Virus record (IMG/VR): IMGVR_UViG_3300032242_000818
Location: 64,001-128,000 of that record
DNA: 64,000 nucleotides
Origin: a virus
Reading direction: 5' to 3' (one strand)
In this document: positions 890 through 37,023 of the stretch, piece by piece
Numbering within the stretch: position 1 is the first letter of the stretch
Layout of the letters: every line of letters begins with the position of its first letter
The notes under the pieces: model-generated
The model's input: only the letters and a program-made list of their open reading frames with translations
The model's database searches: none
What the model was told of the DNA's origin: nothing
Program-made: the position numbers and the translations under genes

Positions 890-896
890 TATTTAG
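890..896 (-). promoter_or_regulatory. T4-type late promoter (CTAAATA)
   Basis: TAAATA core about 25 nt upstream of the ATG at 864; the same motif precedes structural genes. Confidence 0.5.
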
Positions 897-1588
897 GTCA
901 GTCTATTATACTTGCGATCCCATTTACCTATCTGGTCTATGATCTTACGAGTGGCTTGATTGTTTCTTAAATCATAGTTAAATGTTTTTAAGAAATAGTG
1001 AAGTGTAGAAGAATCTCGTTTCTTTAAGTAACGATTCAACAGGATGTTGATATCTACATTTGGTCTGCGCATTTTATAGTCTAGATACACACAATGCGCA
1101 TATGCTTGTATCTCATCAAACTCAGAGAGATATGCTCTCTGTTCATCTTTCTTAGCGTTTCCTACTTTCTTATAGGGAACTACATAATTGCTCCATTCAT
1201 CACCACGTCTATCATATTGCATAAAATGAATCATCTCATGCATCAGAGTTTGTAGTAAACGAAATTTAAATGATGCCCAAGATTTATCGCTGAATGGGAA
1301 TATGTTATATTTTTGTGTATAGATTTGAAGAGTTATCTGGCGTTTTTCTGTGTCATACTCGCCACCGATAGCCACATAGTTTTCAGTCCACTTTGCTTTG
1401 GACTTTTCTTTGCGCCACTCAATTTTAGTGCGCCATTTTCTTACGTAATTTGATAACCCTATTGGATTGTTTTTATAAGAATCTAGATCCACCCATACTT
1501 TTGATGGAATGAGTTTTGCTCTGAATGGACGCTCATAGAAATTGAGTAAGTCCAGCCAGTCGTAAGTTGCGTTCTCTAGGAATTTCAT
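893..1588 (-). CDS. Putative zincin-type metallopeptidase
   Basis: HEMIH (HExxH) motif followed by EIQAYA. Confidence 0.55.
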   Translation of the reverse strand: MKFLENATYDWLDLLNFYERPFRAKLIPSKVWVDLDSYKNNPIGLSNYVRKWRTKIEWRKEKSKAKWTENYVAIGGEYDTEKRQITLQIYTQKYNIFPFSDKSWASFKFRLLQTLMHEMIHFMQYDRRGDEWSNYVVPYKKVGNAKKDEQRAYLSEFDEIQAYAHCVYLDYKMRRPNVDINILLNRYLKKRDSSTLHYFLKTFNYDLRNNQATRKIIDQIGKWDRKYNRLT

Positions 1589-1608: not shown

Positions 1609-2217
1609 TTAACTAAATTGCTTCTCCAAAAATGCAAGAACCTTCCCCTGCTCCTCTAAGTTAGTATTTGCAAACTCAGTAATATATGGCATAAGGTCAA
1701 AATTAGACATCAAGTTACTATATTTAGTTTCTCTTCCACGTAGGAATTGCTCGGACTGATCGGATCCACGATCTCGATATCTTTGTTCTAGGATATCCTT
1801 TGGAGCCTTTAAAAATACCACTTCTAGTTGGGTGTTCGGGAGACACATACAGAACTCTAGGAATGATTGGTTAAAAACCCTATCTCCCTCGAAAAGGATA
1901 TTACAGTTGTGGGAAGCGACCCATTCTTGAAGAGGTGGTTGAACAGCCATAGAAAGTCGATCGGTTCCAGCAAAGGTTTCGCCCTCGTCATATTTACCGA
2001 GGATGTATAGATCTCGTTCTGTATTATAAGAGGCATTTACTAATTTAGCAGGAGAAACTTCTAGCCAAGTTTTATCTTCCATAAACTTACGGAACAAAGT
2101 AGTCTTGCCAGTTCCAGGAGAACCACCAACTGCGATAATCTTTCTGGTCTTCATAGGATTAGTTACCCTTTCTACATTAATAGTGTCAACTACACCTACG
2201 TTCTCATTAAATGCCAT
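1609..2217 (-). CDS. P-loop kinase, candidate 5-hydroxymethylpyrimidine-DNA kinase
   Basis: Walker A GGSPGTGKTT, LGKY..GETFAGTDRLS and FEGDR motifs; near an amino acid:DNA transferase. Start placed at ATG 2217 after a GAGG SD. Confidence 0.7.
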   Translation of the reverse strand: MAFNENVGVVDTINVERVTNPMKTRKIIAVGGSPGTGKTTLFRKFMEDKTWLEVSPAKLVNASYNTERDLYILGKYDEGETFAGTDRLSMAVQPPLQEWVASHNCNILFEGDRVFNQSFLEFCMCLPNTQLEVVFLKAPKDILEQRYRDRGSDQSEQFLRGRETKYSNLMSNFDLMPYITEFANTNLEEQGKVLAFLEKQFS

Positions 2218-2623
2218 TTCTAATTTCCTCAATCATTTTAATCAGTTCTTCTTTACTAAAAACCCAAACACGTCCACGAAAAGAATGTGTATCAGTATTC
2301 TGATCAGTTCTCTTTGTAAAGGTCATCTTGTTAGTAACTTCTTCTGAAGCATACTTTGATAGATTACGTTTAATCTCAGTAGCATAATCTACATTACTTT
2401 CACGTAGTTTCATAAGTTCAAACTCTTGAACTCGATGTTCAACAGTCAACTCATTTAGTGAGTAACGATCTAAAATCATTTCAACTGGTGGGCGGACAGC
2501 AATAGTTGCACCAGTGGTATTCATAGTTATAGTATTACCAGTAGTATTTGAAACTGCAATATTATTCATATCTTCCCAGATAGCATTAGTAAGCCCAGTC
2601 ATTTGTCCTTTAGTCACAGCCAT
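2207..2623 (-). CDS. Hypothetical protein
   Basis: 138-aa ORF overlapping both neighbours. Confidence 0.6.
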   Translation of the reverse strand: MAVTKGQMTGLTNAIWEDMNNIAVSNTTGNTITMNTTGATIAVRPPVEMILDRYSLNELTVEHRVQEFELMKLRESNVDYATEIKRNLSKYASEEVTNKMTFTKRTDQNTDTHSFRGRVWVFSKEELIKMIEEIRNGI

Positions 2624-3639
2624 TAAAAATTCTCCAATCCAATTAAAACAGGTTCTTCATCATCAAACATCCACTCCAAGTTTTCTATTTTACCTGAACT
2701 TAGGAAAGAAGAAAACTTTTCTTTATCAATTCCTCTTTTGTGATCAAGACGAAAGTCAATAGTCTCTTCACGTGATTGCCAAAGAACATCCCAATCAATA
2801 CCATACCAACCATCGTTTTCTGCTTTAATAATCTCTTCTGCCTGACGATCTAAGTAGTAACCAAGATAACGACCATGATGTTCTCTAAAGATTTTCTTAA
2901 AAGAACATAAGCAGGTTTCCATTGTAAAGAAGTCTACTTGCGTTTCCAAATCTGGGAATCTATCTTTGGTTTCGGTGAGAATATATCTGGCTTCTGACTC
3001 AAGATTCGTATACTCGCTACTAGTGAGTTTTCTATCCATATCGTCGTGTCTGCCGAGGGCGCAAAGTAATCCATTACGATGAGAACGAGAGCCATCAAAA
3101 TCATCCAGCATGAGACTAGTAGGGCTGATGCGAATACCAGCGGTATGCTTAAGATGCTGAAGGTAAAACCAAGTGGAATAACGACCAAACTTATGCAGCC
3201 CAGACTTAACGCTTTCCCACAGATTATCAAAGTTGACTTCCTCATTATCTCCATAAAATCTTTCCAATCTTTCTCGTTGAGATCTGCCACCAATGAACTG
3301 TTGATATGAAGCAAACATGGCAGGTAGATGCCCCTTGTTCCACTTTGTATCAGTTTGGTAGCGTAATCGTTTATAGTTTGTTGCGTTCCACTGCGTAATG
3401 CGATCAACTGTTGCTAATTCAAAATCAGGAAACTCATTCATCAATACCCATGCAGTTGGTAATTGATAAGTGTTGCCGTATAGCCAAGCGAGCCAAAGAC
3501 GTTGTTCATCATTATGCTCGTAACGCTTATTGAGATAGTTCGTGCACCAAACAGCTGGGTCACAATCATCATACTTTAATGACCATGCATACCAGCGGAT
3601 GAACGCTTCTCTATTATTTTGCGGAAGTCTGTAATCCAT
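2623..3639 (-). CDS. Amino acid:DNA transferase (aGPT-Pplase2/AADT family, HhH-glycosylase-like fold)
   Basis: DCDP, FGRYSTWFYLQ, ETCLCSFKK and YLGYYLDRQ motifs typical of this family. Confidence 0.8.
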   Translation of the reverse strand: MDYRLPQNNREAFIRWYAWSLKYDDCDPAVWCTNYLNKRYEHNDEQRLWLAWLYGNTYQLPTAWVLMNEFPDFELATVDRITQWNATNYKRLRYQTDTKWNKGHLPAMFASYQQFIGGRSQRERLERFYGDNEEVNFDNLWESVKSGLHKFGRYSTWFYLQHLKHTAGIRISPTSLMLDDFDGSRSHRNGLLCALGRHDDMDRKLTSSEYTNLESEARYILTETKDRFPDLETQVDFFTMETCLCSFKKIFREHHGRYLGYYLDRQAEEIIKAENDGWYGIDWDVLWQSREETIDFRLDHKRGIDKEKFSSFLSSGKIENLEWMFDDEEPVLIGLENF

Positions 3640-3952
3640 CTAGATGTTCAAATTCCATTTTTAATTCATTAATTAACATATTTAATTGCTTGATTGCAGT
3701 TTTCTCTTCACGAATTTCTCTTGCTGCTTTATTCTGATCATCAAAACATACGCAACAATATCCACGAACATCGTTTTTGCGTTTCCTTGTGCTTTGAGAT
3801 TTTAAATAAAATGCGCTTAGTGGTTTATATACCCTACAGCATTTACACCAAGATACTGCTCTTGATTTTGTTCCATCAAGATTAGTTACCCATGCATCTT
3901 CAGCAATTTTCCTCGTAACAACTGCTAAATTTTCTTTTCTTAAGTGTGTCAT
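3614..3952 (-). CDS. Small Zn-finger protein resembling the N-terminus of HNH/EndoVII-type homing endonucleases
   Basis: CKCCRVYKPLSAFY...GYCCVC; no nuclease domain follows. Confidence 0.5.
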   Translation of the reverse strand: MTHLRKENLAVVTRKIAEDAWVTNLDGTKSRAVSWCKCCRVYKPLSAFYLKSQSTRKRKNDVRGYCCVCFDDQNKAAREIREEKTAIKQLNMLINELKMEFEHLDGLQTSAK

Positions 3953-3971
3953 AGTGTGTTCCCAAAATTAT

Positions 3972-4000
3972 ATTTTACTATAAAAATGAATGAAAGTCAA
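3972..4000 (-). promoter_or_regulatory. sigma70-type promoter
   Basis: TTGACT-17 bp-TAAAAT upstream of the ATG at 3952. Confidence 0.6.
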
Positions 4001-4532
4001 GTTGTTTTTGATTCTCTGCAAGACTGAATAAGGTTACGCAACCACCCTTACCCTTGCGATTAACAGCCTTATTGATAGTTGTATCAGAGTAATCGTAGTC
4101 AGCATCTGCATAAGTATCTCCACCTATACGAAAGATAGATAACTGACACCCACTCTTTTGAGCACCCCAAAACTTAAATCCAAGTCGTTCATAGAAACCA
4201 ACTGCCGTCTTCTCGGATGATACTCTAAAGTAAAGAGCACCATTAGATCTTGCACGCTTCAATGAATCTTCACATAATAATCTTGCAGAACCTTTGCCTC
4301 TATGTTTTGAAAATGTATGTAAGAGTTGTAAGTTTGCTACGTGAGGTTTGGTCTTTGAGATTGTAGTAATTATGGCAGCAGTTAATTCATTACCATCATA
4401 TACGCCAATACAGCAATTCCATTGATCCTGCATATCTGCTTTGGCAACAAATGTTTTGGCAAAGTTATCTTCTTTGTCTTCAGTAATTGCTGCTATAAAA
4501 TCAGCACGTGAACACTTAGACAACTTCAACAT
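3978..4532 (-). CDS. GNAT-family acyltransferase
   Basis: HRGKGSA acetyl-CoA motif and AVGFYERLGF motif. Confidence 0.85.
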   Translation of the reverse strand: MLKLSKCSRADFIAAITEDKEDNFAKTFVAKADMQDQWNCCIGVYDGNELTAAIITTISKTKPHVANLQLLHTFSKHRGKGSARLLCEDSLKRARSNGALYFRVSSEKTAVGFYERLGFKFWGAQKSGCQLSIFRIGGDTYADADYDYSDTTINKAVNRKGKGGCVTLFSLAENQKQLDFHSFL

Positions 4533-5400
4533 ATGTTCTTACTTTTTCTCCGCGATCTTCTGGATGTTTAGTTTTCTCCCAGCCAATAAACTGAAGTAGA
4601 TCCCACTGCATTGGAGGGAATGTATAATGATTGTTTGAAATTAATTCTAATACACTTTGACCATCATTCAATGCAGCATCAAGGAAGTCTTGAACGAAAC
4701 GAAAACAAGATTCAAGTTCAGTACGATCCATTGTACCACGAAATAATCTAAACTCTACAGTATCAATATGCTTCAGTGCGTACATATTAATAGCGTAGCG
4801 GAATGGGCGACCCATTGATACTCCATCTTTACCAGCAGCGTGCATCTTAATGAATGAATCAAAGTCAGTTGCTTTGTTGATAATGTTATCTGACATATAG
4901 TCAGGCATTGCTCGACCACCATCAAACTTCAAATACATCTTTGCGCCTTTGGCACCTTTCATTTGGTTATGCTCAAAGTAACCATAGACGTGCTCAATAG
5001 TATCTGTTTGGTTTTCTTTAATGTATTTTGTTAATCGTTTCAATGCTTCGATATCGTCCCTAAGACCAGGAACTCTACAATGAATATGAGTGTGAGCGGT
5101 AACACCCACAGTGGGAGGAGTGCCATTATCATCAAACATTTTATAAAGTTCAAAATATCTGTCAACCTGTTCTTCCCAAGTCTTAGTAGGTTTTGTATTA
5201 ATCTCACCACCAACTGGTGGAGTTTCTCCAAGTGGGTCAGCGCAGACATATTTGTATGGTTCTCTTAGGTTAATAATATCTCGTTCTGAGTATTCCCAAG
5301 AACCAAGATGCTCTGGAATGGAAAAAGAGCGAGGAACATCACCCCACTCTATTTCCATACCGTATGTATATTTGTCAGTTGGATATGGTTTCAGTTTCAT
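4516..5400 (-). CDS. Amidoligase (COOH-NH2 ligase, Amidoligase_2-like)
   Basis: YGMEIEW, GEINT, HTHIH, RYAIN and TVEFRLF motifs. Confidence 0.75.
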   Translation of the reverse strand: MKLKPYPTDKYTYGMEIEWGDVPRSFSIPEHLGSWEYSERDIINLREPYKYVCADPLGETPPVGGEINTKPTKTWEEQVDRYFELYKMFDDNGTPPTVGVTAHTHIHCRVPGLRDDIEALKRLTKYIKENQTDTIEHVYGYFEHNQMKGAKGAKMYLKFDGGRAMPDYMSDNIINKATDFDSFIKMHAAGKDGVSMGRPFRYAINMYALKHIDTVEFRLFRGTMDRTELESCFRFVQDFLDAALNDGQSVLELISNNHYTFPPMQWDLLQFIGWEKTKHPEDRGEKVRTYVEVV

Positions 5401-6082
5401 AATCTACTTTCTGTAAATCTGGTTTGTTAGTTTTAACAAGATTAACATTCATTGTCATATTTGAATCAAATGTCAAGTAAGTGTTCATTGGCACTTCAAC
5501 TGCTGGAATTCTAATACCTGCACGTTTAGGAATATCCGCAGTAGAAGTAATTATAACTCCATTCACTAAAGAAGTCAAATATAATGGACGCTTACCATTT
5601 CTGAAAACAACAAGATGTTTATCATTAACTGATAACTCACAAACTGCCATAGATGCATCTGGATATTCACCAAGAGCATTTGCAGAATGTAAAACAAGTT
5701 CTGAATCATTCTTTGTTTCACAAGGGTAATGAAATAACTTACCCCAATTCTCTGGGAGTTCTTGAGTGATAACTCCGTTGTGAACAATAGAATGTGTTTC
5801 GCTTGCTATCGGCTGGTTATACAATAAATCGCTAGTACTATATCTACAGTGACCAATAAGGTAAAGATTACCGTCATCATTAACCATCTCCTCTAAATTA
5901 TCTAGATGAACAAATTTATCCGCAGGAACTGATTCCTTAAATGTAGTAATCCTACCATCTTTGATATAAGATAAACCAGTTGCATGCATTCCTCTAATCT
6001 TGGACTCGAGGAACACTTTACGGATAGATTCAAAATCCTTGGCAGTAGGATTCTGAATCAAAGCACCAATAACACTACACAT
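5375..6082 (-). CDS. Class II (Ntn) glutamine amidotransferase
   Basis: N-terminal Cys2, RGMHATG, GHCRYST, NQP, HNG, NDSE and RPL motifs. Confidence 0.85.
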   Translation of the reverse strand: MCSVIGALIQNPTAKDFESIRKVFLESKIRGMHATGLSYIKDGRITTFKESVPADKFVHLDNLEEMVNDDGNLYLIGHCRYSTSDLLYNQPIASETHSIVHNGVITQELPENWGKLFHYPCETKNDSELVLHSANALGEYPDASMAVCELSVNDKHLVVFRNGKRPLYLTSLVNGVIITSTADIPKRAGIRIPAVEVPMNTYLTFDSNMTMNVNLVKTNKPDLQKVDYETETISN

Positions 6083-6678
6083 TATTTTAACTCCAAAAAT
6101 GACATTGTGTTTTCTATACCAATACTTCCTTTAAAGAATGTATTAAAAGATAATGAAATTCTATTTTCAGAAGATAGATTAGTATCTACCGAATGTGTTA
6201 GATCAGAAGGAAACAAAATTAACATACCTTTTTTTACATTTAAATTAAATTTTTTACAATTGAATTGATTAACTATTTTTGTATTATAAAATAAATTATT
6301 TTCTTTTTTCTTGTACAATTTTATGCTTTCTGGGATGTCAGGACTAATATAATAAACTCCACTGATTATACTATTATCGTGTGTATGCATATGGTGTGAT
6401 GTGTTTGGTTTATTAACATTTATCCATGATTGTGTTACTACTAATGATACATCTGTTTCTGGACATAAAACATTTTGAACATATTCATCTAACTTTTCAG
6501 AAATCTTTTCAGATATCTCAGGCATACTATTTAAAACATATGTGTTTAAACTGTAAGAATTCCCAGAATAATGATTAAACTCAGTTTCTAATGAATTAAC
6601 AAATTCTAATTCATTATCGTTTAATAATCCAACATCTTCAATATAAAGTGGAATTGGAAATAATGGCAAGAGAGTCAT
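6082..6678 (-). CDS. 2OG-Fe(II) oxygenase (TIGR02466-like)
   Basis: SWIN, HTH, SGVYY, LFPSDLTHSV and RISLSFN motifs. Confidence 0.8.
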   Translation of the reverse strand: MTLLPLFPIPLYIEDVGLLNDNELEFVNSLETEFNHYSGNSYSLNTYVLNSMPEISEKISEKLDEYVQNVLCPETDVSLVVTQSWINVNKPNTSHHMHTHDNSIISGVYYISPDIPESIKLYKKKENNLFYNTKIVNQFNCKKFNLNVKKGMLILFPSDLTHSVDTNLSSENRISLSFNTFFKGSIGIENTMSFLELK

Positions 6679-7991
6679 TAAAAGAAACTTTCTAGTGAAG
6701 AAGCATTAGATTCTGGATGATACTTATGAAGTTCTTCAGTACCAAGTTTAGATTCTACGTAATCATACCATTCTTGAGTAGTCCACATACCCTCAGAAAC
6801 ACCATTCCATAGTGGTTTCCATAAAGGATGTTCTTTATTCAATCTACGAGATTCAACAAAGTTATAACGGCATTCTTCATACTCATGAGAACCAAGATCT
6901 AGCATCTTCTCACGGAAATAACATACCAATGATACACGCTCAGAACCTTCGTCACATTTGATTTCAGTATTACCGTGCATAACTTCATGATTATTAATTA
7001 AGAGCAAGTCACCTGGACGAACATTAACTGCAACACGATACTCAGGGGCAATCAAATATCCTCCAGTATACTTACCATCATTAGATAATGTTAGCAAGTT
7101 AGATAGACCTGAATTCAAATCACCTGCATCATAATGAGCAGCAGTTCTAAATGTTTTATTGACAGTGATAGTTGTAAATGGAGTTCCAGGAACAAGGAAT
7201 CTTGGATCTAGTTTTGATGCTGCTTCCATTTGTGCAGCAAATCGTTCTGGTAAAAGATTCTTAAAACCTTCAGAAAGATTTTGAAGGAATGGATATGACA
7301 TTTGAAACTTCTCAAAATTGTCACGGGTATAAGAAGTTGCACGACCATAAGGGATACGTGGGTAACGATCAAACCAACCAGCAATACCTGAGTTAACAGC
7401 ACTACCATAGGTAGTTGTGCTAACCATCTTCATGACTTCTTCAGTAGCCTTTGCTCGTTCTTCGCGTGTAAAAGTTTTAATTGAATCAAGCCATGCTTCA
7501 AAATCAAACTTACCACGGAAACGAGAGATGACCCATACATTATTTTTACCATCACCACCAGCCATCTTCTTATCTACTTCACGTGGATATTTGGCACGAA
7601 CAGTATCGATGACATCTTCATTATCAAGAGCAGAGTTACGATTCTTAATGAGGGCACGCATCATCTCATCTTGATAGTTTGTTACCCATTCTCTTCCTTC
7701 AGTTGTGGCAAGAATGCCATCTTTGATACCAGAAGCAAGTCCTCGATTCTCTGTTCGAATAGCTGCTTCTCTAAGTCCGACATATGCTGCATCTTGCTGC
7801 TCTTTACTAAAATAATTTTTACGAAACTTCAATACGATTCGTTTTTCTGAGATTGGATCTTCACCAAATTGTGGTGGCATATAAACATCAGTATCTTCTT
7901 CAATAAGAAAATCATAATTTGATTCGTCAACAAACTTACCAAGAAGATGTTCACAATTATGTTTTTGTTCAGCTACAATTATCTTAACCAT
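6678..7991 (-). CDS. TET/JBP-family 5-methylpyrimidine dioxygenase
   Basis: GWFDRYPR, TITVN...AAHYD (HxD), MHGNT and RVSLVCYFRE (Rx5-aromatic) motifs. Confidence 0.85.
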   Translation of the reverse strand: MVKIIVAEQKHNCEHLLGKFVDESNYDFLIEEDTDVYMPPQFGEDPISEKRIVLKFRKNYFSKEQQDAAYVGLREAAIRTENRGLASGIKDGILATTEGREWVTNYQDEMMRALIKNRNSALDNEDVIDTVRAKYPREVDKKMAGGDGKNNVWVISRFRGKFDFEAWLDSIKTFTREERAKATEEVMKMVSTTTYGSAVNSGIAGWFDRYPRIPYGRATSYTRDNFEKFQMSYPFLQNLSEGFKNLLPERFAAQMEAASKLDPRFLVPGTPFTTITVNKTFRTAAHYDAGDLNSGLSNLLTLSNDGKYTGGYLIAPEYRVAVNVRPGDLLLINNHEVMHGNTEIKCDEGSERVSLVCYFREKMLDLGSHEYEECRYNFVESRRLNKEHPLWKPLWNGVSEGMWTTQEWYDYVESKLGTEELHKYHPESNASSLESFF

Positions 7992-8000
7992 ATCTTTCTC

Positions 8001-9398
8001 CTAAAACTTAAACCCACTGAAACCTTCTGCTTTCTGTCTCTTTCCAAACTCACTCTTATCAAACATAGGAACATCAACTTCCTTTGTCTGCCCAGAGTCA
8101 GATAAACCTACTTGAGCAGATGCTTCAACATCATATAACTTCATCTTCGCTCGATCAACTCCGATAACAAATCTCTTATAGAAACTAGGATCGTTGTAAC
8201 GATTCTTTAATTGTTTCACAATAATCTGATTCAGTTGTTCAAGTTCTTCATTTGAAACTAACGCAAACATCAAGTCAGCAGTGGCAGGTAATCCAAACGA
8301 TTCAGAAGTATCTTCCAAACCTGGATCGCTATTTGTAAATCCACTTCGAGTAGTTTGTGTGGCTGAAACGATTGGAACATTATATTCAACAGCCAAACCA
8401 CGCAACTCCTCAGCGATGGACTTAATATATGTATAAGAATTAATACTTCCACCTTGCTTCATACGCTGGCTTGCGCAAATGTTTAGATAGTCAATGAAGA
8501 TAATATCAGGTAAGAACTCACGCTTCAACTTCAACTCTTCAAGCAATGCTCTAAAGTGCCCAGCATGCGCACCTGCAGTTGGATATTCTTTAACGATTAA
8601 TTTACCTTGAGTCTTACTTGAGATTTTCTTAATACGATTATCAAAGATATCTTTATCAATAACTTTCAACTCATCCATGGTAAGGTTCAACAAGTTGGCA
8701 TCGATACGTTCAGCGATTCGTTCCTCAGCCATTTCCATAGTAATGTAAAGAACATTCTTACCTTGAACTAAAACACCAGCAGCCACGTGACACATAAACA
8801 AAGATTTACCAACACCAGTGCCAGCCAATACGATGTTAAGGGTTTTCTTCGATAGACCACCCTTAGTGATCTTGTTAAACATATCCAAATCGAAAGGCAA
8901 CTTCTCTTCAACCCTATGATAATATTCATAACGAGCATCACTATCTTCGATATAGTCATGACCAACATGGTTATCAAAAGAAACGGCAAGAGCATCAGAG
9001 AGTATAGAAGGAATTGAGTCCTTGGTGTGGACTTTATCTCCTCCATCGATGATTTTAATAGAGTGTAGAATCGCATTATAAACTGCCTTATCTTTACAAA
9101 ATTTCTCAGTTTGTTCCATCATCCAAGAATCATTAACTTCCTCATGAGTCATTGTTTCTACGTAAGTATTAATGTCAGAAAGTTCTTTGTCATTAATGTC
9201 AGTTCGATTACCAACTTCAATAGAAAGAATTTCTTTTGTTAATGGCTTATTATATTTGGTAAAGAAATCCACAATGATCTTAGCAATGATTGCTTCTTTT
9301 CTTTCAGAGAAATAATCAGTGCGGATAAAAGGGATTACTTTACGACAATATTCTTCATCATATACAAGATTAGTTAAAATCTTTGTTTCAATTCTCAT
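8001..9398 (-). CDS. gp41: Replicative DNA helicase
   Basis: DnaB-like; AGTGVGKS, SATQTTRSG, SESFGLPATAD. Confidence 0.97.
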   Translation of the reverse strand: MRIETKILTNLVYDEEYCRKVIPFIRTDYFSERKEAIIAKIIVDFFTKYNKPLTKEILSIEVGNRTDINDKELSDINTYVETMTHEEVNDSWMMEQTEKFCKDKAVYNAILHSIKIIDGGDKVHTKDSIPSILSDALAVSFDNHVGHDYIEDSDARYEYYHRVEEKLPFDLDMFNKITKGGLSKKTLNIVLAGTGVGKSLFMCHVAAGVLVQGKNVLYITMEMAEERIAERIDANLLNLTMDELKVIDKDIFDNRIKKISSKTQGKLIVKEYPTAGAHAGHFRALLEELKLKREFLPDIIFIDYLNICASQRMKQGGSINSYTYIKSIAEELRGLAVEYNVPIVSATQTTRSGFTNSDPGLEDTSESFGLPATADLMFALVSNEELEQLNQIIVKQLKNRYNDPSFYKRFVIGVDRAKMKLYDVEASAQVGLSDSGQTKEVDVPMFDKSEFGKRQKAEGFSGFKF

Positions 9399-9691
9399 TC
9401 AGTTCCGCCAGTGTAAGTAATGTTGTTTCTTTGTAGTTCTTCTGCCATAATAAACTGAAGAAGTTCACCAATATAGAATTCAAATTCTTCTTTGTTGTAC
9501 TCTATCTGATTGTTATGGACTTCATACTCAAAGTTAAGTTTGCAAGTGTCATCAGGTTGCTCGTCAAACTTAACTTTACCGTAAGAATATATTATACCTT
9601 CAAATGGTCCAGAAGTCAACTTTATCGCATCATGTCCTGTTTTGCGATTCTCAACTAGAATATAAGGTTTCGCAAGATGTTCACTCATCAA
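9395..9691 (-). CDS. gp40: gp40-like head vertex assembly chaperone
   Basis: Position between uvsX and gp41; GIIYSYGKV motif. Confidence 0.6.
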   Translation of the reverse strand: MMSEHLAKPYILVENRKTGHDAIKLTSGPFEGIIYSYGKVKFDEQPDDTCKLNFEYEVHNNQIEYNKEEFEFYIGELLQFIMAEELQRNNITYTGGTE

Positions 9692-11009: not shown

Positions 11010-11558
11010 CTATGGGTTGCTCTTTGAATGTGGAACATCAAACACAAATGTGATTCTAGTACAGTCTCCAATGTTTTCTGTTCCGTGTAGTAGTTTATTA
11101 TTGAACCAAAGTAAAGTTCCAGGTTCAACATCATAATGTTCATCACCTACAAAATATCTATATCTTCCTTGGATGGATAGATGATAACGATCTCTTGTAA
11201 GGTAATATTTTCCTTCATCAATATGGCGTCCAACATATCCTCCAACTGGAAGAGATAAGAATCCACAACGACTAAATTTTTTAAAGTTTCTTTTAAGGAA
11301 ACCAACTATCTCTGTGTGATGTTTGATTGCTTCAGTTGGTATACATATCTCACTATCGCCAACAAAGTCTTCTAATTTTTCTACGCCACCAACAACAAGC
11401 TGAAGATTGCCAACTGGTATGTCGTCATATCCTCTATCGATAAGTGATTGAGCACCTTCAATACTTTTCTGAGCCATCCAATCTTCAGGATGTTCTTTTA
11501 GTTGTTTCAATATCTTTGAAACATTAATCCCAGTTTTAATGATACGAATATTATCCAA
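11010..11558 (-). CDS. Aspartyl/asparaginyl beta-hydroxylase-like 2OG-Fe(II) oxygenase
   Basis: HID...RYHL...WFNNKLLHG...RITFVFD. Confidence 0.75.
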   Translation of the reverse strand: MDNIRIIKTGINVSKILKQLKEHPEDWMAQKSIEGAQSLIDRGYDDIPVGNLQLVVGGVEKLEDFVGDSEICIPTEAIKHHTEIVGFLKRNFKKFSRCGFLSLPVGGYVGRHIDEGKYYLTRDRYHLSIQGRYRYFVGDEHYDVEPGTLLWFNNKLLHGTENIGDCTRITFVFDVPHSKSNP

Positions 11559-14037
11559 AGAAATCCTCTAATGAACTTTGTTCTGATGTATTCCAACCCA
11601 GTGGCTCAATAACAATCTGAAGAGCATCGAGAAATACTTTCTCAAATTGTTTATCATAATCTATGTAGGAATGCAATTCAAACTCTGGTGGCAACTCTTG
11701 ACTAAACGCAATGACATCTTCTTGAAATGGATTTGGTTTACGAACATAGACAAACTTAATCTTATCACCATCACGGATTGGTTGATACTTTTTATCAAGA
11801 CCCATCTTCTTGGTGTAGTGATTAAACAATAATGCGCCACGAACATGAATCGGAGTTCCCTTAGAATAGATAGGTGAACCAGCATACTGTTTCATACCAT
11901 TTACGCCACGAGGGAATGCGATATCTTGAACAGGTAGTTTGTCAAACTCTTTACGGAAATCCATAATATAATTCTGAAGATCTGACTGATTACCTTTAAG
12001 AATAACCTCAATCGAGTCACGCAACTTATCACGAATGACTGCAGGTGTTGAAGACTTGACCATCTCAAGACCCATAACTTTAATCTTAGGTTTCGCATAT
12101 TGAACACCTTCAGAGTTATGAACATTAAGAATATATCTTTTCTTGGCAGTCCAGATACCTTTATCAGCAAGAACTTCTCGCTTCATCTGCATCTTTTGAC
12201 TATACGCATTCATATAGTCAGCGAGTTCTTGATAGCCTGTATCAATAAATGGTTGAAAGATACCCTCACAAACCTTATCCATAAACTTAATCTTTTGTTC
12301 ATCAGTTTGGCCAGCACATGCTTGCTCAACTAGAGTTTCAAGAGTAAGATAGATTGAGTCAGTATCAATCGCAACTACATAATCTTTATCCTCAGTCTTG
12401 AGAGTTTTGTTCATGAACGCATTTAACTTGTTAGCCATCCAGCGAATAGATAACTGACCAGAAGTAGTAATACCTTCAGCCATACGGATATCGAAGTATC
12501 GGAAATACTGATTACCCATGGCACCATAAGCAGAGTTCAAAGCAATCTTCATAGCCATCTGAAGATTATTCAAACGAGAAATATCTTTGAGCAAGTGTTT
12601 TTGAGACTTATCTTTCTCATACTCTTGTTGAACTTTCAGCATTTGTTTCTTAAATTTGCTTCGGTCAACATACATCTTTTCCATTAACTCAGGCATGAAC
12701 CCTTTGAACTCTTTTGTATAAGTCCAACCATTTGCAGTCAAAGCAAGATCTCGTTGCTTAACATAAGTTGTATCAATTTCTTGATTCAAAAGTTTGTCAA
12801 CAGTCACGCTAATCTTTTCAGAAGTCAAAGTCTCAGGACTGATATTATACTGCATAATCAAATGCGGATATAATGAGTTCAAATCAAATGAAGCCATCCA
12901 TTTATGAAGACCAATGATTGGATCTTTAACGTACGCACCCTCGAACTGAGCATCTTTACCAGAGTGTGACTTCGCAGGAACAACAATACCCTTCTTGCGT
13001 AAATGGTTATAGATGATTGTATCCCACATACGAACCTGCGAATAAACATCTTCGAAATTAATCTTAGCGTTATATGCCATGGTTAAATGCAGTTCAATCA
13101 AACGCATCTTATCTTCTAGTTTGTCAACCAACTCTACGTCATGAATATTATAATCTACGAATTGTTGCCAGTGATTAGTATAGAAATCCTTGAAAGATTC
13201 TCCTGGATTAACCTTCTTCTTGTCACCAAGTTCTTGTTCAGCGATATAATCAAGGCGATACGATTCTTGTTTAGAATATGTATATTTCTTATACAGTTCA
13301 AGATAATCCAACTGAGCGATACCAATAATGTCATAGTGAATCTCTTCATTACCTTTAATGAAAGTCTTGCGTTCATTGACATAACCCCATGGACTCAATT
13401 TATTAGATTCACCATCACCAAGTTCACGTTCAATCCTACGGATAAGATACGGCATGTCAAAGAAGTCAGTATTCCAACCAGTGATAACATCGGGATGACT
13501 CTTAGTCCAAAACTCTAGAAATTGAATAAGAAGATTATGTTCATCTTTACAGTTAACATAGATTACATCTTCGCGTGGATTGACGTATGCTTTGCTACCA
13601 AAAGTAATAATTCGTTTAGTAGAAAGTTCCTTAACAGTGATTAATAGGATCTCTTCATTGGCAGACTTGATATCAGGGAAACCATTCTCAGTTGAAGTCT
13701 CAATGTCAATGGTAAATACTTTAATCTGCTCCATATCCCAATTGATATCATGGGAATAATTGTCGCTGATGTATTGGTATGCGTAGTTTGAGTTTCCATA
13801 AACATCAAACCCCTGAACACCCTCATATCGTTTAATGAAGTCGCGTGTTTCTTTAATAGTCCCAGGTTGGACTTCATCAACGAATGTTCCCTCCAGTGTC
13901 TTCCACTTGGAGGGTTTCTTTGAAGTTACGTAAAGGGTAGGACTGAAGTCTAGTTTACGTTGGTAGCGTTTACCATTCTCCACACCACGAATGAAAATTC
14001 GATCTCCAATCGGATGCACCGAAGTATAAAATTCCAT
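11551..14037 (-). CDS. gp43: Family B DNA polymerase
   Basis: DIET exonuclease motif, SFDLNSLYP, KIALNSAYG, DTDS; C-terminal clamp tail SLEDFF. Confidence 0.98.
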   Translation of the reverse strand: MEFYTSVHPIGDRIFIRGVENGKRYQRKLDFSPTLYVTSKKPSKWKTLEGTFVDEVQPGTIKETRDFIKRYEGVQGFDVYGNSNYAYQYISDNYSHDINWDMEQIKVFTIDIETSTENGFPDIKSANEEILLITVKELSTKRIITFGSKAYVNPREDVIYVNCKDEHNLLIQFLEFWTKSHPDVITGWNTDFFDMPYLIRRIERELGDGESNKLSPWGYVNERKTFIKGNEEIHYDIIGIAQLDYLELYKKYTYSKQESYRLDYIAEQELGDKKKVNPGESFKDFYTNHWQQFVDYNIHDVELVDKLEDKMRLIELHLTMAYNAKINFEDVYSQVRMWDTIIYNHLRKKGIVVPAKSHSGKDAQFEGAYVKDPIIGLHKWMASFDLNSLYPHLIMQYNISPETLTSEKISVTVDKLLNQEIDTTYVKQRDLALTANGWTYTKEFKGFMPELMEKMYVDRSKFKKQMLKVQQEYEKDKSQKHLLKDISRLNNLQMAMKIALNSAYGAMGNQYFRYFDIRMAEGITTSGQLSIRWMANKLNAFMNKTLKTEDKDYVVAIDTDSIYLTLETLVEQACAGQTDEQKIKFMDKVCEGIFQPFIDTGYQELADYMNAYSQKMQMKREVLADKGIWTAKKRYILNVHNSEGVQYAKPKIKVMGLEMVKSSTPAVIRDKLRDSIEVILKGNQSDLQNYIMDFRKEFDKLPVQDIAFPRGVNGMKQYAGSPIYSKGTPIHVRGALLFNHYTKKMGLDKKYQPIRDGDKIKFVYVRKPNPFQEDVIAFSQELPPEFELHSYIDYDKQFEKVFLDALQIVIEPLGWNTSEQSSLEDFFG

Positions 14038-14438
14038 TATTTTGTTTTCTCAGCTAATTCTTTATACCCTGCCCATGATGGATGGACACCATCTGGTTGC
14101 ATACGATCTGTTCTTAGAATAACATCGTTATATTCGTTTGCCACATGCCAGACTGCTGACTGCGCCTTTGGAAACTTATCACTTGGCATTACCCAGTAAA
14201 CTCTCTGAGCATTTGTTAGTTGACGGATAGTTCGTAATTCTTCTTCAGTGTTCTTTACGTATGCGTCATTTGAACCAAGTGAGATAATAACATGACGTGC
14301 TTGAAGTGGTGTGTTCTTAATATTTGTATTTAACCATTGATGAGAATTAATTCCACCTTTAGAATACGAAACACATTCTTTCCTTACGTTGGCAATTCCA
14401 ACTGCTATTGAATCTCCTGCAATTAAACATTCTAACAT
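14037..14438 (-). CDS. SGNH/GDSL hydrolase
   Basis: GDSI, SLGSND and DGVHP blocks. Confidence 0.8.
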   Translation of the reverse strand: MLECLIAGDSIAVGIANVRKECVSYSKGGINSHQWLNTNIKNTPLQARHVIISLGSNDAYVKNTEEELRTIRQLTNAQRVYWVMPSDKFPKAQSAVWHVANEYNDVILRTDRMQPDGVHPSWAGYKELAEKTK

Positions 14439-23646: not shown

Positions 23647-24600
23647 TCACTTAAACTTACAGTTGGCCATAATCTCAGTCAACGCTGCCATAATATTTAA
23701 TTCATGATCAGCTACGAATGCTGCTTTGTATTGATAGTCAGCAAGAACCAAAACTAAAGATGGGATACTTTCTGGAACCATATATGATACTGAAGTATCA
23801 TAGAGTTCACGGAACAATGCTACTGTGTCTGAATCAGAATTCTTACCGACCCACTTACGAACATTGGTGAAATCTTTTTCTTTCATTAACTTGATTAAGT
23901 CTTTGAAAGACTCTTGACTCATGTTAACTAAAATACCTGAATCGATCTTACCAGAAACACTATAACGCTGAAGTTCATTTAGAACCCTACGATAATCTGG
24001 AAAGTGTTTAGTAATAAGTTCGGCAACTACTTTCTGATCAAACTCAATATTCTCCTGTTTAAGAATTTGAGATGCTCGTTTAAAGAATTGACCAAGAAGA
24101 ACCTGCTTATCTTTAGCATCAATCTTAAAGTCGATACAAGCGCAACGAGAATGAATCGCTTCTAAGATACGATTCTTAAAGTTACAAGTAAAGATAAAAC
24201 GACAGTTAGCTGAAAACTCTTCAATGAAACTACGCAATGCTGGTTGAGTAGAGTTGGCTTGAAGATAATCTGCCTCATCGATAATAATAATCTTTGGGGA
24301 ATCAGTCAAAGATACGGTAGAAGCAAATCCCTTAATCTTAGTTCGGAGAGTATCAATACCTGATTCCTCTGAGCCGTTGATCATAATGTAATCAGCATTA
24401 ATTTCATAACATAGTGCTTTGGCAATAGTAGTTTTACCAATACCTGCAGTTCCCGATAGTAGGAAGTGTGGTAGTTCCCCCTGTGTTACATATTGTTTAA
24501 AAGTTTCCTTCAACGCATCAGGAAGAACACAGTCATCAATTTTCTGTGGGCGATATTTCTCTACCCAAAGAAATTGGTCATCACGAAAATCAATCATCAC
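23647..24600 (-). CDS. gp44: Clamp loader ATPase subunit
   Basis: WVEKYRP, GTAGIGKTT, DEAD, SRC. Confidence 0.96.
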   Translation of the reverse strand: MMIDFRDDQFLWVEKYRPQKIDDCVLPDALKETFKQYVTQGELPHFLLSGTAGIGKTTIAKALCYEINADYIMINGSEESGIDTLRTKIKGFASTVSLTDSPKIIIIDEADYLQANSTQPALRSFIEEFSANCRFIFTCNFKNRILEAIHSRCACIDFKIDAKDKQVLLGQFFKRASQILKQENIEFDQKVVAELITKHFPDYRRVLNELQRYSVSGKIDSGILVNMSQESFKDLIKLMKEKDFTNVRKWVGKNSDSDTVALFRELYDTSVSYMVPESIPSLVLVLADYQYKAAFVADHELNIMAALTEIMANCKFK

Positions 24601-24608
24601 TTACTCCA

Positions 24609-26099
24609 TTATTTAATATAATCAAATTTAACAACAATGTTATTTTGTTCGAGCAATACCTTATGATCAATATAACTCGCTACTTGGATATCTTCCAAGT
24701 AACTATTATACTTCATTAATTCTTGCTCCACAAGTTTTTCACCATAGGTTTTTGTTAAGTTCTGCAGGATATATTCACGATCAAACATATCCATACCTGC
24801 CATAACCTGAGCATAACTATACGCATTAAACAAATTGTATTCATTCAAGAAATATGTCTTTGATGGTAAAGTCTTTTTCCAAATATCTAAATGCTCTTTA
24901 TTAAAATCAGTAACAGTCATAATCTCTGGAATTGTTTTCCAGAAATCGCTATCTTTTCTTTTACCAAGATAATGTATCTGAATGAAATCAACAATGTTAT
25001 CAAAACATTCAGTAAATCTTTTATTATATTGTTTAGTAATTTTATCTCGTTCAACTTCCCAAACTGGTAACATTCTAACGAAACCAAATGCTTGCATAAT
25101 CGAGTTTCCGATACTAGATGCTTCTAAAGGCTCAACAAATGAAGCAGATAATCCAATACTTACGCAATTGTTTATCCAAAATTGGTCAACTCTTCCAGCA
25201 TCAAACTTAATATCCTTTGCGACATTAACTTTCTCAGAATAGTGAGATTGAATCTCATCGTGGGCTTGAGTTGCGTTAATAAAATCATCACAGAAAACAT
25301 ACCCATTACCATATCTTCCCTGAGTTGGAATTCTCCAATTCCATCCAGAGGATAATGCTTTAGATAATGTATATGGTTTAAGTTCAGTAATATTTTCAGT
25401 AGGAAATGCCAAAGCATGATTCATTGGTAGGTACTTTTTGTATGATACCCACTTAGAACCTAATTTTGTTGATATGATCCTTTTGAATCCACTACTATCA
25501 ATAAAGAAATCTGCGTTATGCAAAGTTCCGCTTTCACCAACTAGAGCAGAAACATCTCCATTATCAGAAACCATAACATCAGTTACAGTTGTCTTTACAA
25601 AATTAATACTTGCTTCTTCACAAACTTTGTGTAGAAACTCGTTCAACTTGAATGTATTAAATTGATATTGATTAACTGAATTAAGACCAAATGATGTATT
25701 AATTAAATTGGTTTCATTAAGAACATCTTCAGTCTTAATGTTATTTCCAATTAAGGTTTTAATAAAAGTTAATTTCTCTGATAAATCATCAGCAGAAGTA
25801 TATTCACTATAAAATGGATCAACGATTGCATGGAAATAACTTTTTCCATCACCATTCCAATTTTCAAACTTGATACCTTTCTTTAAGGTACCATGAGTTT
25901 CTCTAACTAATCGTTGCATTGAAATGCCACAATATTCTGCGAATATTCTCCAATGCTCAGTTGAGCCTTCACCAACTCCAATAATACCGATTGAATCTGA
26001 TTCAATTACAGTAACATTACAAAGAGGAAATGACTTTTTAATTATAAGTGCTGAAACTAACCCAGCAGTTCCAGCACCGAGAACAATAATGTTTTCCAT
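24609..26099 (-). CDS. Flavin-dependent (tryptophan) halogenase family protein
   Basis: GAGTAG, GVGEGS, LKKGIKFENW, WNWRIP (WxWxIP), FVEPLEASSI. Confidence 0.85.
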   Translation of the reverse strand: MENIIVLGAGTAGLVSALIIKKSFPLCNVTVIESDSIGIIGVGEGSTEHWRIFAEYCGISMQRLVRETHGTLKKGIKFENWNGDGKSYFHAIVDPFYSEYTSADDLSEKLTFIKTLIGNNIKTEDVLNETNLINTSFGLNSVNQYQFNTFKLNEFLHKVCEEASINFVKTTVTDVMVSDNGDVSALVGESGTLHNADFFIDSSGFKRIISTKLGSKWVSYKKYLPMNHALAFPTENITELKPYTLSKALSSGWNWRIPTQGRYGNGYVFCDDFINATQAHDEIQSHYSEKVNVAKDIKFDAGRVDQFWINNCVSIGLSASFVEPLEASSIGNSIMQAFGFVRMLPVWEVERDKITKQYNKRFTECFDNIVDFIQIHYLGKRKDSDFWKTIPEIMTVTDFNKEHLDIWKKTLPSKTYFLNEYNLFNAYSYAQVMAGMDMFDREYILQNLTKTYGEKLVEQELMKYNSYLEDIQVASYIDHKVLLEQNNIVVKFDYIK

Positions 26100-26755
26100 T
26101 AAAACTCGAAAGAAGAATCTGCCTCAACTGCTACATAATAAACCAAATCACCTGCGCCTTTAAAACGAGAGATCTTCTTGCTCGAAACACTAACAGCATA
26201 ATCACCTGGGATCATCTTTAGATTTTCTACTTTCAAATTAACTTTGAATTTCTTATCGCTCGCGCCAACAGTAGAGTTATAAGAGTTACCAGTGGCGTTC
26301 TTTTTGTCGCCAACCACAACAGTCATAGTTGAACCATCACCAACGATTGATACATCAGAAGCACGCAATACTGAAGCAGTACGTTGGATCATACTGAGCA
26401 TATTTGCGCTCATGTTAAATTCAATTTCTGGATCAGGGAATGTAATTGCTTTCTGTGGTGCAGTTAGTACGCTTGCATCTGCTGCAAAGTATTTGATGCT
26501 GTTGCCACCTTGCTCGATAGTAACCCATTTGTCATTGAATGTCAATTCTGGATCTTCAAACAAAGACATCGCACCCAAGAACTCATTGAGGTCGTAGATA
26601 CCAAAGTCTGGGAAAGTTTCAGTAACAACTGCATCAGCCATTACATTCTTTTGAGCCGAGATAGTGGCTAGTTTATTGCCAGACTTCAAAAGTAAATTGC
26701 TATTAATACCAGCAAAGTTCTTGATCAAGCCTACAGTTTCTTTACTTAATTTCAT
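26099..26755 (-). CDS. gp45: Sliding clamp
   Basis: MKLSKET..KNFAGIN, FGIYDLNEFL, ENLKMIPGDY. Confidence 0.96.
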   Translation of the reverse strand: MKLSKETVGLIKNFAGINSNLLLKSGNKLATISAQKNVMADAVVTETFPDFGIYDLNEFLGAMSLFEDPELTFNDKWVTIEQGGNSIKYFAADASVLTAPQKAITFPDPEIEFNMSANMLSMIQRTASVLRASDVSIVGDGSTMTVVVGDKKNATGNSYNSTVGASDKKFKVNLKVENLKMIPGDYAVSVSSKKISRFKGAGDLVYYVAVEADSSFEF

Positions 26756-31993: not shown

Positions 31994-31994
31994 A

Positions 31995-32153
31995 TTATTC
32001 TCCGAATGCTTCTTCTAACTCATACTCAGTCAAGAACTTCTCAACTTCATCACGATTAGCCAATGAAAGATCGCCTGAAAAAACCAACAGGTCTTCTAGA
32101 CCATAACGACCAGCCAACTCGGCTAGTTCGAAGTCACTAAAATCATTCCACAT
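31995..32153 (-). CDS. Small acidic early protein (52 aa)
   Basis: Manual translation MWNDFSDFELAELAGRYGLED...; AAGG SD. Confidence 0.6.
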   Translation of the reverse strand: MWNDFSDFELAELAGRYGLEDLLVFSGDLSLANRDEVEKFLTEYELEEAFGE

Positions 32154-32183
32154 AATATAACCTTTCACTCAATTTATACAATA

Positions 32184-32212
32184 ATTATACTACAACATTG
32201 CATGAAAGTAAA
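32184..32212 (-). promoter_or_regulatory. Early sigma70 promoter
   Basis: TTTACT-17 bp-TATAAT. Confidence 0.8.
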
Positions 32213-32229
32213 GCGAAACTTGACGAGCA

Positions 32230-32267
32230 CGTAAGTTGTTGATTTATAAGGGGATAATTCCCCTCAA
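32230..32267. repeat. Right copy of the inverted repeat
   Basis: CGTAAGTTGTTGATTTATAAGGGGATAATTCCCCTCAA. Confidence 0.7.
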
Positions 32268-32270
32268 GTT

Positions 32271-32420
32271 TCAAAGGTAATCTTCGATATCCGCCATTTT
32301 TATAGAAATTTTAGCGTCGTCCGCCCCTTCGCCGAAAACGACCTCGCTAAAAAATTCTTCTATTTCAGAAAATTTTTGGAAAACGAAAGTATTATCGTCG
32401 TTAAGAGTGACTTCAAACAT
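32271..32420 (-). CDS. Small acidic early protein (49 aa)
   Basis: Manual translation MFEVTLNDDNTFVFQKFSEIEEFFSEVVFGEGADDAKISIKMADIEDYL; AGGAG SD and its own promoter. Confidence 0.6.
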   Translation of the reverse strand: MFEVTLNDDNTFVFQKFSEIEEFFSEVVFGEGADDAKISIKMADIEDYL

Positions 32421-36500: not shown

Positions 36501-37023
36501 CTATAAATGCATTCAATGTATTTTCCATTTTCTTCTTGGCTGCTTTTTCTTTCTTGCGACCAATAAAATCATCGAATGTATTATTCTGTTGCATAAACTC
36601 AAGATAAGCATTATGGAATTCACCAGTCTCATCTTGCTCTTGTAACTCAAACATTTCAAAGGGCATGTTCTGAATCAACTTACCTTTAATATAAGATTGT
36701 TTCTTTTCTTTGGCAATGCGTCTTAGAAATGCATAGTAAATAATTTGTGTAAAATAAGCAAAAGGATTACTAGACTTTGCTGGATCAAAGTTATCAATAT
36801 ACTGAATGCAGTTTTCAATTCCATCTAAAATCATATCATCACGATACGAGTAATTAATGAAGTTGGGTTTGTATGATAAGTGCGTTGCTATCTTTAAAAT
36901 ACATTCACCAATATAATTACTAATAACTGGCTTTGGTAAACCATTCTCTTCAGCATGTTTAACTTTTTCTTTCATCTCAACGATTGCTGCGAGAAAGTCT
37001 TTATTGTTTACGTAATGAGCCAT
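36385..37023 (-). CDS. gp55: Late-transcription sigma factor
   Basis: HYVNNKDF, NFINYSY, NPFAYFTQI..AFLRRI.KEKKQ. Confidence 0.96.
   Translation of the reverse strand: MAHYVNNKDFLAAIVEMKEKVKHAEENGLPKPVISNYIGECILKIATHLSYKPNFINYSYRDDMILDGIENCIQYIDNFDPAKSSNPFAYFTQIIYYAFLRRIAKEKKQSYIKGKLIQNMPFEMFELQEQDETGEFHNAYLEFMQQNNTFDDFIGRKKEKAAKKKMENTLNAFIDDENPNESITTTIHSEFEQVISSDSELPFDTPESQEKK

Follow-up and report, generated by a model that had tools for sequence, protein, structure and literature searches.

The window analysed here is a stretch of 64,000 nucleotides, bases 64001-128000 of the 164,717-bp IMG/VR virus record IMGVR_UViG_3300032242_000818, which has direct terminal repeats and a completeness rated at 100%. 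It contains a gene cluster at 1609-7991 that is predicted to hypermodify thymidine in DNA after replication and that is headed by a TET/JBP-type dioxygenase. By its gp41, UvsX, gp43 and gp45 the genome carrying this cassette is placed as that of an uncultured T4-like, Kyanoviridae-like freshwater myovirus; gp41 shares 63-65% identity with its counterparts in cyanomyoviruses and in Methylophilales phage Melnitz, and a megablast comparison of the cluster with cultured phages gave no nucleotide-level match. Eleven co-directional genes on the minus strand run from gp41 (8001-9398) down to position 1609, with overlaps of 1-26 nt or gaps of 9-25 nt. Pfam matches are given below as bits against the family gathering cut-off, and PHROGs were searched as well.

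8001-9398, minus strand: gp41, DnaB-type replicative helicase, the conserved upstream anchor (PF03796, E 6e-21; phrog_19, E 4e-124)
6678-7991, minus strand: TET/JBP-type 5-methylpyrimidine dioxygenase (5mYOX), 437 aa (PF12851)
6082-6678, minus strand: 2OG-FeII_Oxy_5 oxygenase, an optional insert (PF13759, 78.4 bits against 27)
5375-6082, minus strand: stand-alone class II (Ntn) glutamine amidotransferase (GATase) domain, 235 aa (PF13522, 37.4 bits against 27)
4516-5400, minus strand: predicted Amidoligase_2, a glutamine-synthetase-fold carboxylate-amine ligase, 294 aa (PF12224, 16.7 bits against 22)
3978-4532, minus strand: GNAT acyltransferase, 184 aa, with the tail LDFHSFL (PF13673, 44.5 bits against 23.6)
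3614-3952, minus strand: orf112, a small Cys-rich protein (PHROG endonuclease VII matches, E 1e-4)
2623-3639, minus strand: amino acid:DNA transferase (AADT; aGPT-Pplase clade 2), 338 aa, with the tail GLENF (PF18724, 86.2 bits against 26.2)
2207-2623, minus strand: orf138, a family-less open reading frame (ORF) inside the cluster
1609-2232, minus strand (probable ATG at 2217): P-loop kinase, predicted to be a 5-hydroxymethyldeoxyuridine (5-hmdU) DNA kinase, with the tail FLEKQFS (PF18751, 28.5 bits against 27)
893-1588, minus strand: HExxH (SprT-like) protein, 231 aa, the downstream boundary of the island and outside the cassette (weak PF10263 match)

The seven enzyme families that an earlier note on this DNA had named for 1609-7991 are all recovered there by Pfam or PHROGs, as mostly overlapping genes following gp41, together with two small ORFs that the note had left unnamed, orf112 and orf138. 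The dioxygenase (hereafter TET) is matched by PF12851 at 87.1 bits against a cut-off of 34.9 and was recovered by a search of the whole genome too. Its residues H286, D288, H339 and R352, which make up the HxD...H iron triad and the arginine binding 2-oxoglutarate (2OG), are invariant in 30 homologues, and the catalytic residues align with the HxD and distal His/Arg segments of TET2. Residues 1-215 retrieved from the ESM Atlas only clusters bearing Tet_JBP, with scores below 0.9; as a lead, the N-terminal half is taken to be part of the oxygenase fold and not a fused ParB domain.

The case for thymine as the substrate of TET comes from the rest of the genome. Across the complete 164,717 bp there is no match at E <= 1 to the thymidylate-synthase family (PF00303), and therefore no dUMP or dCMP hydroxymethylase, nor is there a match at this threshold to the C5-methyltransferases (PF00145); a search for GT1/GT2 glycosyltransferases in the complete genome likewise found none. 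The absence of all three kinds of enzyme had been reported for the window, and it thus extends to the whole genome. The genome encodes ThyX, which makes dTMP, and three complete related genomes lack both a ThyA-family enzyme and a C5-methyltransferase. Thymine is therefore the available 5-methylpyrimidine and TET the sole candidate source of 5-hydroxymethyluracil (5-hmU). The published criterion for choosing thymine over 5-methylcytosine as substrate is the lack of a cognate C5-methyltransferase, which is the situation in this genome. The best reading is that TET would act first, on thymine in DNA, to give 5-hmU, as the earlier note had proposed; the negative genome-wide check, the invariant Fe/2OG residues and the homologies of the kinase and AADT all speak for it. 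The accompanying claim that characterised phage TETs act with C5-methyltransferases or glycosyltransferases is outdated, as phage thymine dioxygenases have since been shown experimentally: phage 5mYOX enzymes oxidise thymine to 5-hmU, in vivo as well as in vitro (O'Toole et al. 2026, PNAS, PMC13229309).

The two enzymes expected to act on 5-hmU are the kinase and the AADT. The kinase is 23% identical over 166 aa to gp49 of phage PaMx11, a proven 5-hmdU DNA kinase (5-HMUDK; BLASTP, E 7e-6), and its Walker A motif G37-K43-T44 is invariant. It belongs to phrog_800 (E 7e-14), whose members, PaMx11 gp49 included, are often annotated as 'terminase small subunit'. The closest cultured relatives of the AADT are genes of ViI-like (Ackermannviridae-type) phages and their mycobacteriophage homologues, 27-29% identical over the full length (93-100% coverage), one of which is annotated as a clade 2 pyrophosphorylase. 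E241-T242-x-x-C245 is invariant in the AADT and aligned, weakly and with low hhalign probability, with Glu243-Thr244-x-x-Cys247 (ETILC) of PaMx11 gp46, where Glu243, Thr244 and Cys247 are metal-binding and base-clamping residues (PMC11472151). Sequence and profile searches of the PDB with the AADT gave nothing meaningful, and PaMx11 gp46 was not retrieved. Within AADT clade 2, ViI gp247 is a proven serine:DNA transferase, and the chemistry of kinase followed by AADT has been reconstituted (Lee et al. 2021, PMC8989533).

This class of pathway is already published and its first step has been demonstrated in relatives. Similar neighbourhoods had indeed been predicted computationally, as the earlier note said: Lee et al. 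(2021, NAR, PMC8989533) described metavirome contigs without a hydroxymethylase in which TET_JBP lies beside 5-HMUDK and AADT (their Fig. 2, sequences 22-25), drew the identical conclusion that TET forms 5-hmU in situ, and noted amidoligase and glutaminotransferase genes on these contigs without assigning them a role. Those 5mYOX clusters resemble the present one in their enzyme families, in having no dUMP hydroxymethylase or C5-methyltransferase and in coming from IMG/VR contigs; they differ in that the cassette described here sits within a T4-like replication module and its DNA-acting enzymes have polymerase-like tails. O'Toole et al. (2026, PMC13229309) further report that a ParB-dependent subclass, clade C1, is 'consistently linked' to GATases, P-loop kinases and AADTs. 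This TET has in common with clade C1 both that linkage and an extended C-terminus, but the neighbouring ParB-like activator that defines the subclass is present in sister cassettes and not in this genome.

Among cultured phages, the PaMx11 pathway to 5-AcNmdU uses the AADT gp46, the FAD lyase gp47, the acetyltransferase gp48 and the 5-HMUDK gp49. As in the present cluster, a kinase, an AADT and a GNAT-type acetyltransferase share one operon, and the kinases are homologous. However, PaMx11 obtains 5-hmdU from a ThyA-family gene beside the operon, gp51, which is annotated 'thymidylate synthase' and is of a type described as dUMP hydroxymethylases (Lee et al. 2021, PMC8989533), whereas here TET would be the source; and its FAD lyase unmasks the amine, whereas the cassette here has no FAD lyase and carries a GATase and an amidoligase. 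The ViI pathway to 5-NeOmdU comprises the kinases gp67 and gp243, the serine:DNA transferase gp247 and the pyridoxal phosphate (PLP) decarboxylase gp226. It differs in that 5-hmdU is supplied before replication and tailoring is by the PLP decarboxylase, and an AADT identity of 27% does not reveal amino acid specificity.

Two cultured T4-like phages have related gene sets. Methylophilales phage Melnitz-3 (L089:3957-8037) encodes a C5-methyltransferase, a 328-aa Tet_JBP protein ending in NLNDFLGE, an uncharacterised 427-aa protein and a kinase 33% identical to this one, a set that looks like a cytosine counterpart of the present cassette. Caulobacter phage Cr30 (L004, 51794-60681) has a TET (42% identical), an AADT-like gene (28%) and a kinase (36%) over about 9 kb, with an inositol-1-phosphate synthase interspersed; the annotation of its TET reads 'SNF2 DNA repair protein'.

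The remaining cluster genes would build or tailor the group attached to DNA. The GATase begins Met-Cys, and all 33 homologues retain C2, R80, N102, G103 and D126; we take these to correspond to the glutamine-site residues of GlmS and PurF (the Cys nucleophile, Arg, Asn-Gly and Asp). It consists of an entire glutaminase domain, with no synthase domain attached. The amidoligase gene overlaps the GATase gene by 26 nt. PF12224 is matched at E <= 0.01 by 10 of 16 amidoligase relatives (best E 4.5e-5), and one relative that is 29% identical (locus L050) scores 23.9 bits. An AlphaFold2 model of the amidoligase (pLDDT 76, pTM 0.80) was compared with known structures by VIA-align; it aligns with 1tt4 over 213 residues (Z 11.0, rmsd 4.4) and with YbdK 1r8g (Z 10.6), and its top structural matches are all GS, GCL, GmaS or PafA (Z 9.7-11 for YbdK, glutamine synthetase, GCL and PafA). 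Residues E16, E18, H105, H107, E216 and R218 are invariant, and sequence and profile searches of the PDB with the amidoligase and with orf138 gave nothing meaningful. The GNAT protein matches the acetyltransferase gp48 of PaMx11 locally and weakly.

The other three genes are optional. A homologue of the 2OG-FeII_Oxy_5 protein occupies the slot next to TET in a minority of loci only (27-55% identity), and three paralogues lie elsewhere in the genome. The earlier note was right that a 2OG oxygenase is in the cluster, but the gene is an optional insert and one of four genomic paralogues, and we judge a role as a core step of the pathway unlikely. Elsewhere in the genome, the three 2OG-FeII_Oxy_5 paralogues and one 2OG-FeII_Oxy_3 gene are found at G000 9285-9563, 24052-24315, 31951-32289 and 13570-14151, and the 2OG-FeII_Oxy_3 gene is 46% identical to one within the type ii cassettes described below. 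orf112, with weak endonuclease VII/HNH-like matches, has relatives only in loci L017 and L019; it is an optional gene, inserted where sister cassettes can have a ParB-like one. orf138 has a variable Thr/Gly-rich N-terminus and a conserved C-terminal region of about 90 aa; it has no Pfam, PHROG, PDB or ESM Atlas match, and many cassettes of types i and iii contain it, as do some with the glycosyltransferase. A role as a required activator of TET was considered and rejected, since it is missing from many cassettes of each type.

The comparison of cassettes, the count of swaps between them and the recognition of optional inserts are among the things that this analysis adds to the known class of pathway. 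The protein collection contains 2,586 homologues of TET, and IMG/VR has 292 loci, of which 80 were fetched; the type counts below come from the 42 loci that reach both boundaries of the island. In nearly all loci extending far enough upstream TET lies directly downstream of gp41, and at its downstream side the island ends with the 231-aa HExxH protein, whichever of the six cassette types it contains.

Type i (this window), 15 complete loci: GATase, amidoligase, GNAT, variable slot, AADT, sometimes orf138, kinase
Type ii, 6 loci: GATase, 323-aa amidoligase, u182, AADT, kinase
Type iii, 2 loci: GATase, a different GNAT, AADT, orf138-like protein, kinase; no amidoligase
Type iv, 1 locus: family-less 343-aa protein, divergent AADT, kinase
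Type v, 13 loci: a single GT1 glycosyltransferase
Type vi, 5 loci: two family-less proteins of 335 and 150 aa

On a maximum-likelihood tree of TET the cassette type switches at least 10 times, the minimum possible being 5. In the sister phages of type v, whose TETs are 72-80% identical to this one, a 449-aa GT1 glycosyltransferase replaces the whole kinase/AADT cassette. The nesting of the glycosyltransferase loci L025 and L029 within the type i clade is well supported, and both keep orf138 and a 114-aa kinase remnant. A fixed TET followed by interchangeable kinase/AADT or glycosyltransferase modules fits an enzyme that would supply a common hydroxymethyl handle. The combination of TET with one glycosyltransferase matches the logic of trypanosome base J, made by JBP1/2 and a glucosyltransferase, while this window represents the kinase/AADT branch. 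The 449-aa GT1 gene is found at L032:9320-10669, L029:10091-11440 and in 11 further complete loci; the cassettes of 335-aa and 150-aa proteins are seen at L056:7777-8784 and L076:9314-10770, and that with the 343-aa protein, which ends in SSLEESF, at L053:2875-3906.

A second feature of the cluster is the resemblance of several C-termini to that of the replicative polymerase, for which three further elements of the window are needed.

6678-6701, minus strand: C-terminal tail of TET, SSLESFF, resembling the gp43 tail SSLEDFFG
11551-14037, minus strand: gp43, family B DNA polymerase, ending in SSLEDFFG (PF00136 and PF03104)
26099-26755, minus strand: gp45 sliding clamp, 218 aa, the proposed docking partner of the tails (PF09116, 42.6 bits)

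The strict motif [ST]L[DE]xFF at the extreme C-terminus is found in 2 of 601 six-frame ORFs of the genome, which are gp43 and TET. A looser form ends 7 of the 206 likely genes, where 0.53 would be expected, namely TET, AADT and kinase in the cassette, gp43, RNase H and two unknowns. Tails also recur among relatives: all 37 distinct TET ends have one, as do 18/18 of GNAT, 15/15 of AADT (GL[ED]xF) and 9/9 of the glycosyltransferase ((D/N)(L/M)ES(L/F)FG). The second type of GNAT and the 343-aa protein of type iv are tailed as well, and the kinases in the looser form. Among the relatives of GATase, both amidoligase forms, ParB-like proteins, orf138, the oxygenases, gp41 and UvsX no tail was found. 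The TETs of the cultured T4-like phages DLP_6, C48C1 and Melnitz end in a similar tail, that of Cr30 weakly so, and the tail is absent from the TETs of HTVC112P and P12024L, which have small non-T4-like genomes of 32-36 kb, and of S-CBWM1. Outside the cassette, the tail PLEFFLG ends a 321-aa protein without a Pfam family (window 52325-53290, minus strand), and LLDELEDF ends the T4-type RNase H (G000 36010-36978; L171:211-1179, minus strand).

C-termini that bind gp45 are established T4 biology (PMC2988020), and T4 alpha-glucosyltransferase, a DNA-modifying enzyme, binds gp45 (PMC13216743) and acts on 5-hydroxymethylcytosine (5hmC) that was incorporated before replication. From these precedents and the polymerase-like tails we infer that the DNA-acting enzymes of the island ride on gp45; for TET, kinase, AADT and GNAT, docking through the tails is proposed with moderate confidence. 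More tentatively, and with doubt outweighing conviction, the clamp clients, the sister glycosyltransferase included, might form a tool-belt assembly line behind the fork, with the clamp replacing a ParB-like CTPase as tether and the untailed GATase and amidoligase preparing the donor off DNA. A description of polymerase-like tails on DNA-acting enzymes was not found in the literature searched.

The relation of this TET to ParB deserves separate mention. A ParB-like gene lies between GNAT and AADT in 6/15 complete type i cassettes; it evolves fast, at 343-457 aa, and its products have a DGNHR motif and a ParB_N (PF02195) match below cut-off (E 0.0014). Such genes are seen at L013:6179-7552, L021:11538-12824 and L061:9803-10834, with further loci at L026, L027, L064 and L084. 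TETs 82-87% identical to this one co-occur with them (L013, L021). A tblastn search of the genome with three of the sister proteins gave only E > 0.1, and orf112 fills the slot. In the cultured 32-kb Pelagibacter phage HTVC112P (L173:536-2758) a ParB-like nuclease-domain gene, a 302-aa TET and an FkbM methyltransferase are consecutive. This TET seems to be related to the ParB-associated group while having no ParB itself, because its catalytic half is 46% identical to the HTVC112P enzyme, which directly follows a ParB-like gene. Some 75 residues follow R352-F359 in the present TET, and the HTVC112P enzyme stops about 25 residues past the equivalent segment.

Taken together, we consider it likely, on gene content, motifs and homology, that the cluster is a post-replicative thymidine hypermodification cassette. 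The genes, motifs and homologies are as described above, and each chemical step is assigned from the family of the enzyme; the conversion of thymine to 5-hmU, the phosphorylation and the displacement by AADT rest in addition on gene content and on homology to characterised enzymes, and remain predictions. The genome would be replicated with ordinary dTTP, ThyX being encoded, and TET would then oxidise thymine in the polymer to 5-hmU. The P-loop kinase would phosphorylate the 5-hmU hydroxyl, and the clade-2 AADT would exchange the phosphate for an amine or hydroxyl nucleophile, which could be an amino acid or ammonia from the stand-alone GATase. GNAT would acylate a free amine of the DNA-bound group, and the amidoligase would make one more amide bond at the expense of ATP, either on the group already attached or on the donor ahead of its transfer. 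The expected end result is a 5-substituted uracil, neutral or carrying an amide, which would protect the DNA against host nucleases. Docking on gp45 would allow modification to follow the replication fork, the clamp taking the DNA-tethering role proposed for ParB elsewhere.

The order of the later steps is less certain. The earlier note had the kinase and AADT followed by amide and acyl tailoring. Homology bears out the kinase and AADT, but tailoring after the AADT is not established, because the GATase persists without an amidoligase in type iii and may therefore act at or before the AADT step. As the GATase lacks a synthase domain and is kept in type iii, ammonia may enter at the AADT step to give 5-aminomethyl-dU, which GNAT could acylate as PaMx11 gp48 does in making 5-AcNmdU. 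The amidoligase could amidate a carboxylate with ammonia from the GATase, on the appended amino acid or the free donor. Amidation of 5-carboxyuracil is a further possibility, given the iterative oxidation of which phage 5mYOX enzymes are capable (PMC13229309).

Several observations count against this pathway or its parts. The amidoligase falls below the PF12224 cut-off, a score despite which its predicted identity stands, on the PF12224 matches of its relatives and the match of its modelled fold. The AlphaFold2 model of TET (pLDDT 61), for which the alignment of 30 sequences at 62-90% identity was too shallow, left the core unresolved and was not used. The late sigma factor gp55 (window 36385-37023, minus strand) has no acidic-hydrophobic C-terminal clamp tail, unlike T4 gp55, and gp43 is therefore the only internal reference for the tail motif. 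No PF02195 match and no ParB-like gene was found in this genome, and among ParB-less clade C1 enzymes some were inactive in E. coli assays (PMC13229309). The GATase and amidoligase, being without tails, may not act on DNA.

This last point is also the main attraction of an alternative in which only TET, kinase and AADT modify DNA, and the GATase and amidoligase, perhaps with GNAT, form a small-molecule module that makes the donor (an amino acid amide, for example) or serves an unrelated metabolic purpose. Type iv cassettes work without GATase and amidoligase, and a GATase-like protein beside an Amidoligase_2 also occurs as a gene pair outside DNA modification contexts. Nevertheless the GATase is present in all three types with a standard AADT (i, ii and iii) and always adjoins TET, GNAT is tailed in every distinct sequence, and amidoligase and glutaminotransferase genes recur with 5-HMUDK and AADT (Lee et al., PMC8989533), so that we regard the alternative as improbable. 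Far less probable is a route in which a methyltransferase, either the host's or an unrecognised one, makes 5-methylcytosine, TET oxidises it, and the cassette goes on to hypermodify cytosine by way of 5hmC. Oxidation of 5-methylcytosine is indeed carried out by phage TETs of clades A and B, and T4-like phage Melnitz has adjacent genes for a C5-methyltransferase, a Tet_JBP protein and a homologous kinase, but PF00145 is matched neither in this complete genome nor in the three complete relatives, all AADT/5-HMUDK enzymes characterised so far act on 5-hmU (PMC8989533), and only 6% of 5mYOX pathways co-occur with a C5-methyltransferase (O'Toole et al., PMC13229309).

The slightest chance is given to a supply of 5-hmdU before replication by an unrecognised hydroxymethylase, with TET in another role such as the placing of sparse, sequence-specific regulatory marks. 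The partial and sequence-selective oxidation seen by O'Toole et al., who raised an epigenetic-like role (PMC13229309), would suit this; against it stand the absence at E <= 1 of any thymidylate-synthase-family gene, the presence of ThyX making dTMP, and the position of TET as the one invariant gene heading every cassette type.

Three things make this cassette interesting in its own right: ParB is missing, the island behind the fixed TET is hot-swapped, and there are polymerase-like tails. Near-identical TETs with and without a ParB-like gene, and one TET before six interchangeable cassettes, are natural experiments, and with the tail one could understand how modification after replication manages not to fall behind the fork. 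Given the abundance of the TET family, the base is probably common in freshwater viral DNA, where it would affect virome sequencing, restriction and nanopore analysis, and the pathway would be convenient for reconstitution and for enzymatic DNA-labelling tools.

A few minor observations concern the surroundings of the cluster. Promoter-like sites did not exceed their frequency in shuffled sequence, and the T4 late-promoter motif TATAAATA, with a single occurrence in the window, stays under the chance expectation. Just before the window and downstream of the island, G000 54001-64864 (L088) encodes family-less proteins of 455 and 294 aa, a ferritin/Dps-like gene, DUF6267, DUF6321 and a 1141-aa protein, and no link to modification genes was seen across this stretch. 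Directly downstream of gp45 (window 24609-26099, minus strand) lies a gene for an FAD-dependent protein of the tryptophan-halogenase family, 496 aa (PF04820, E 1e-96).

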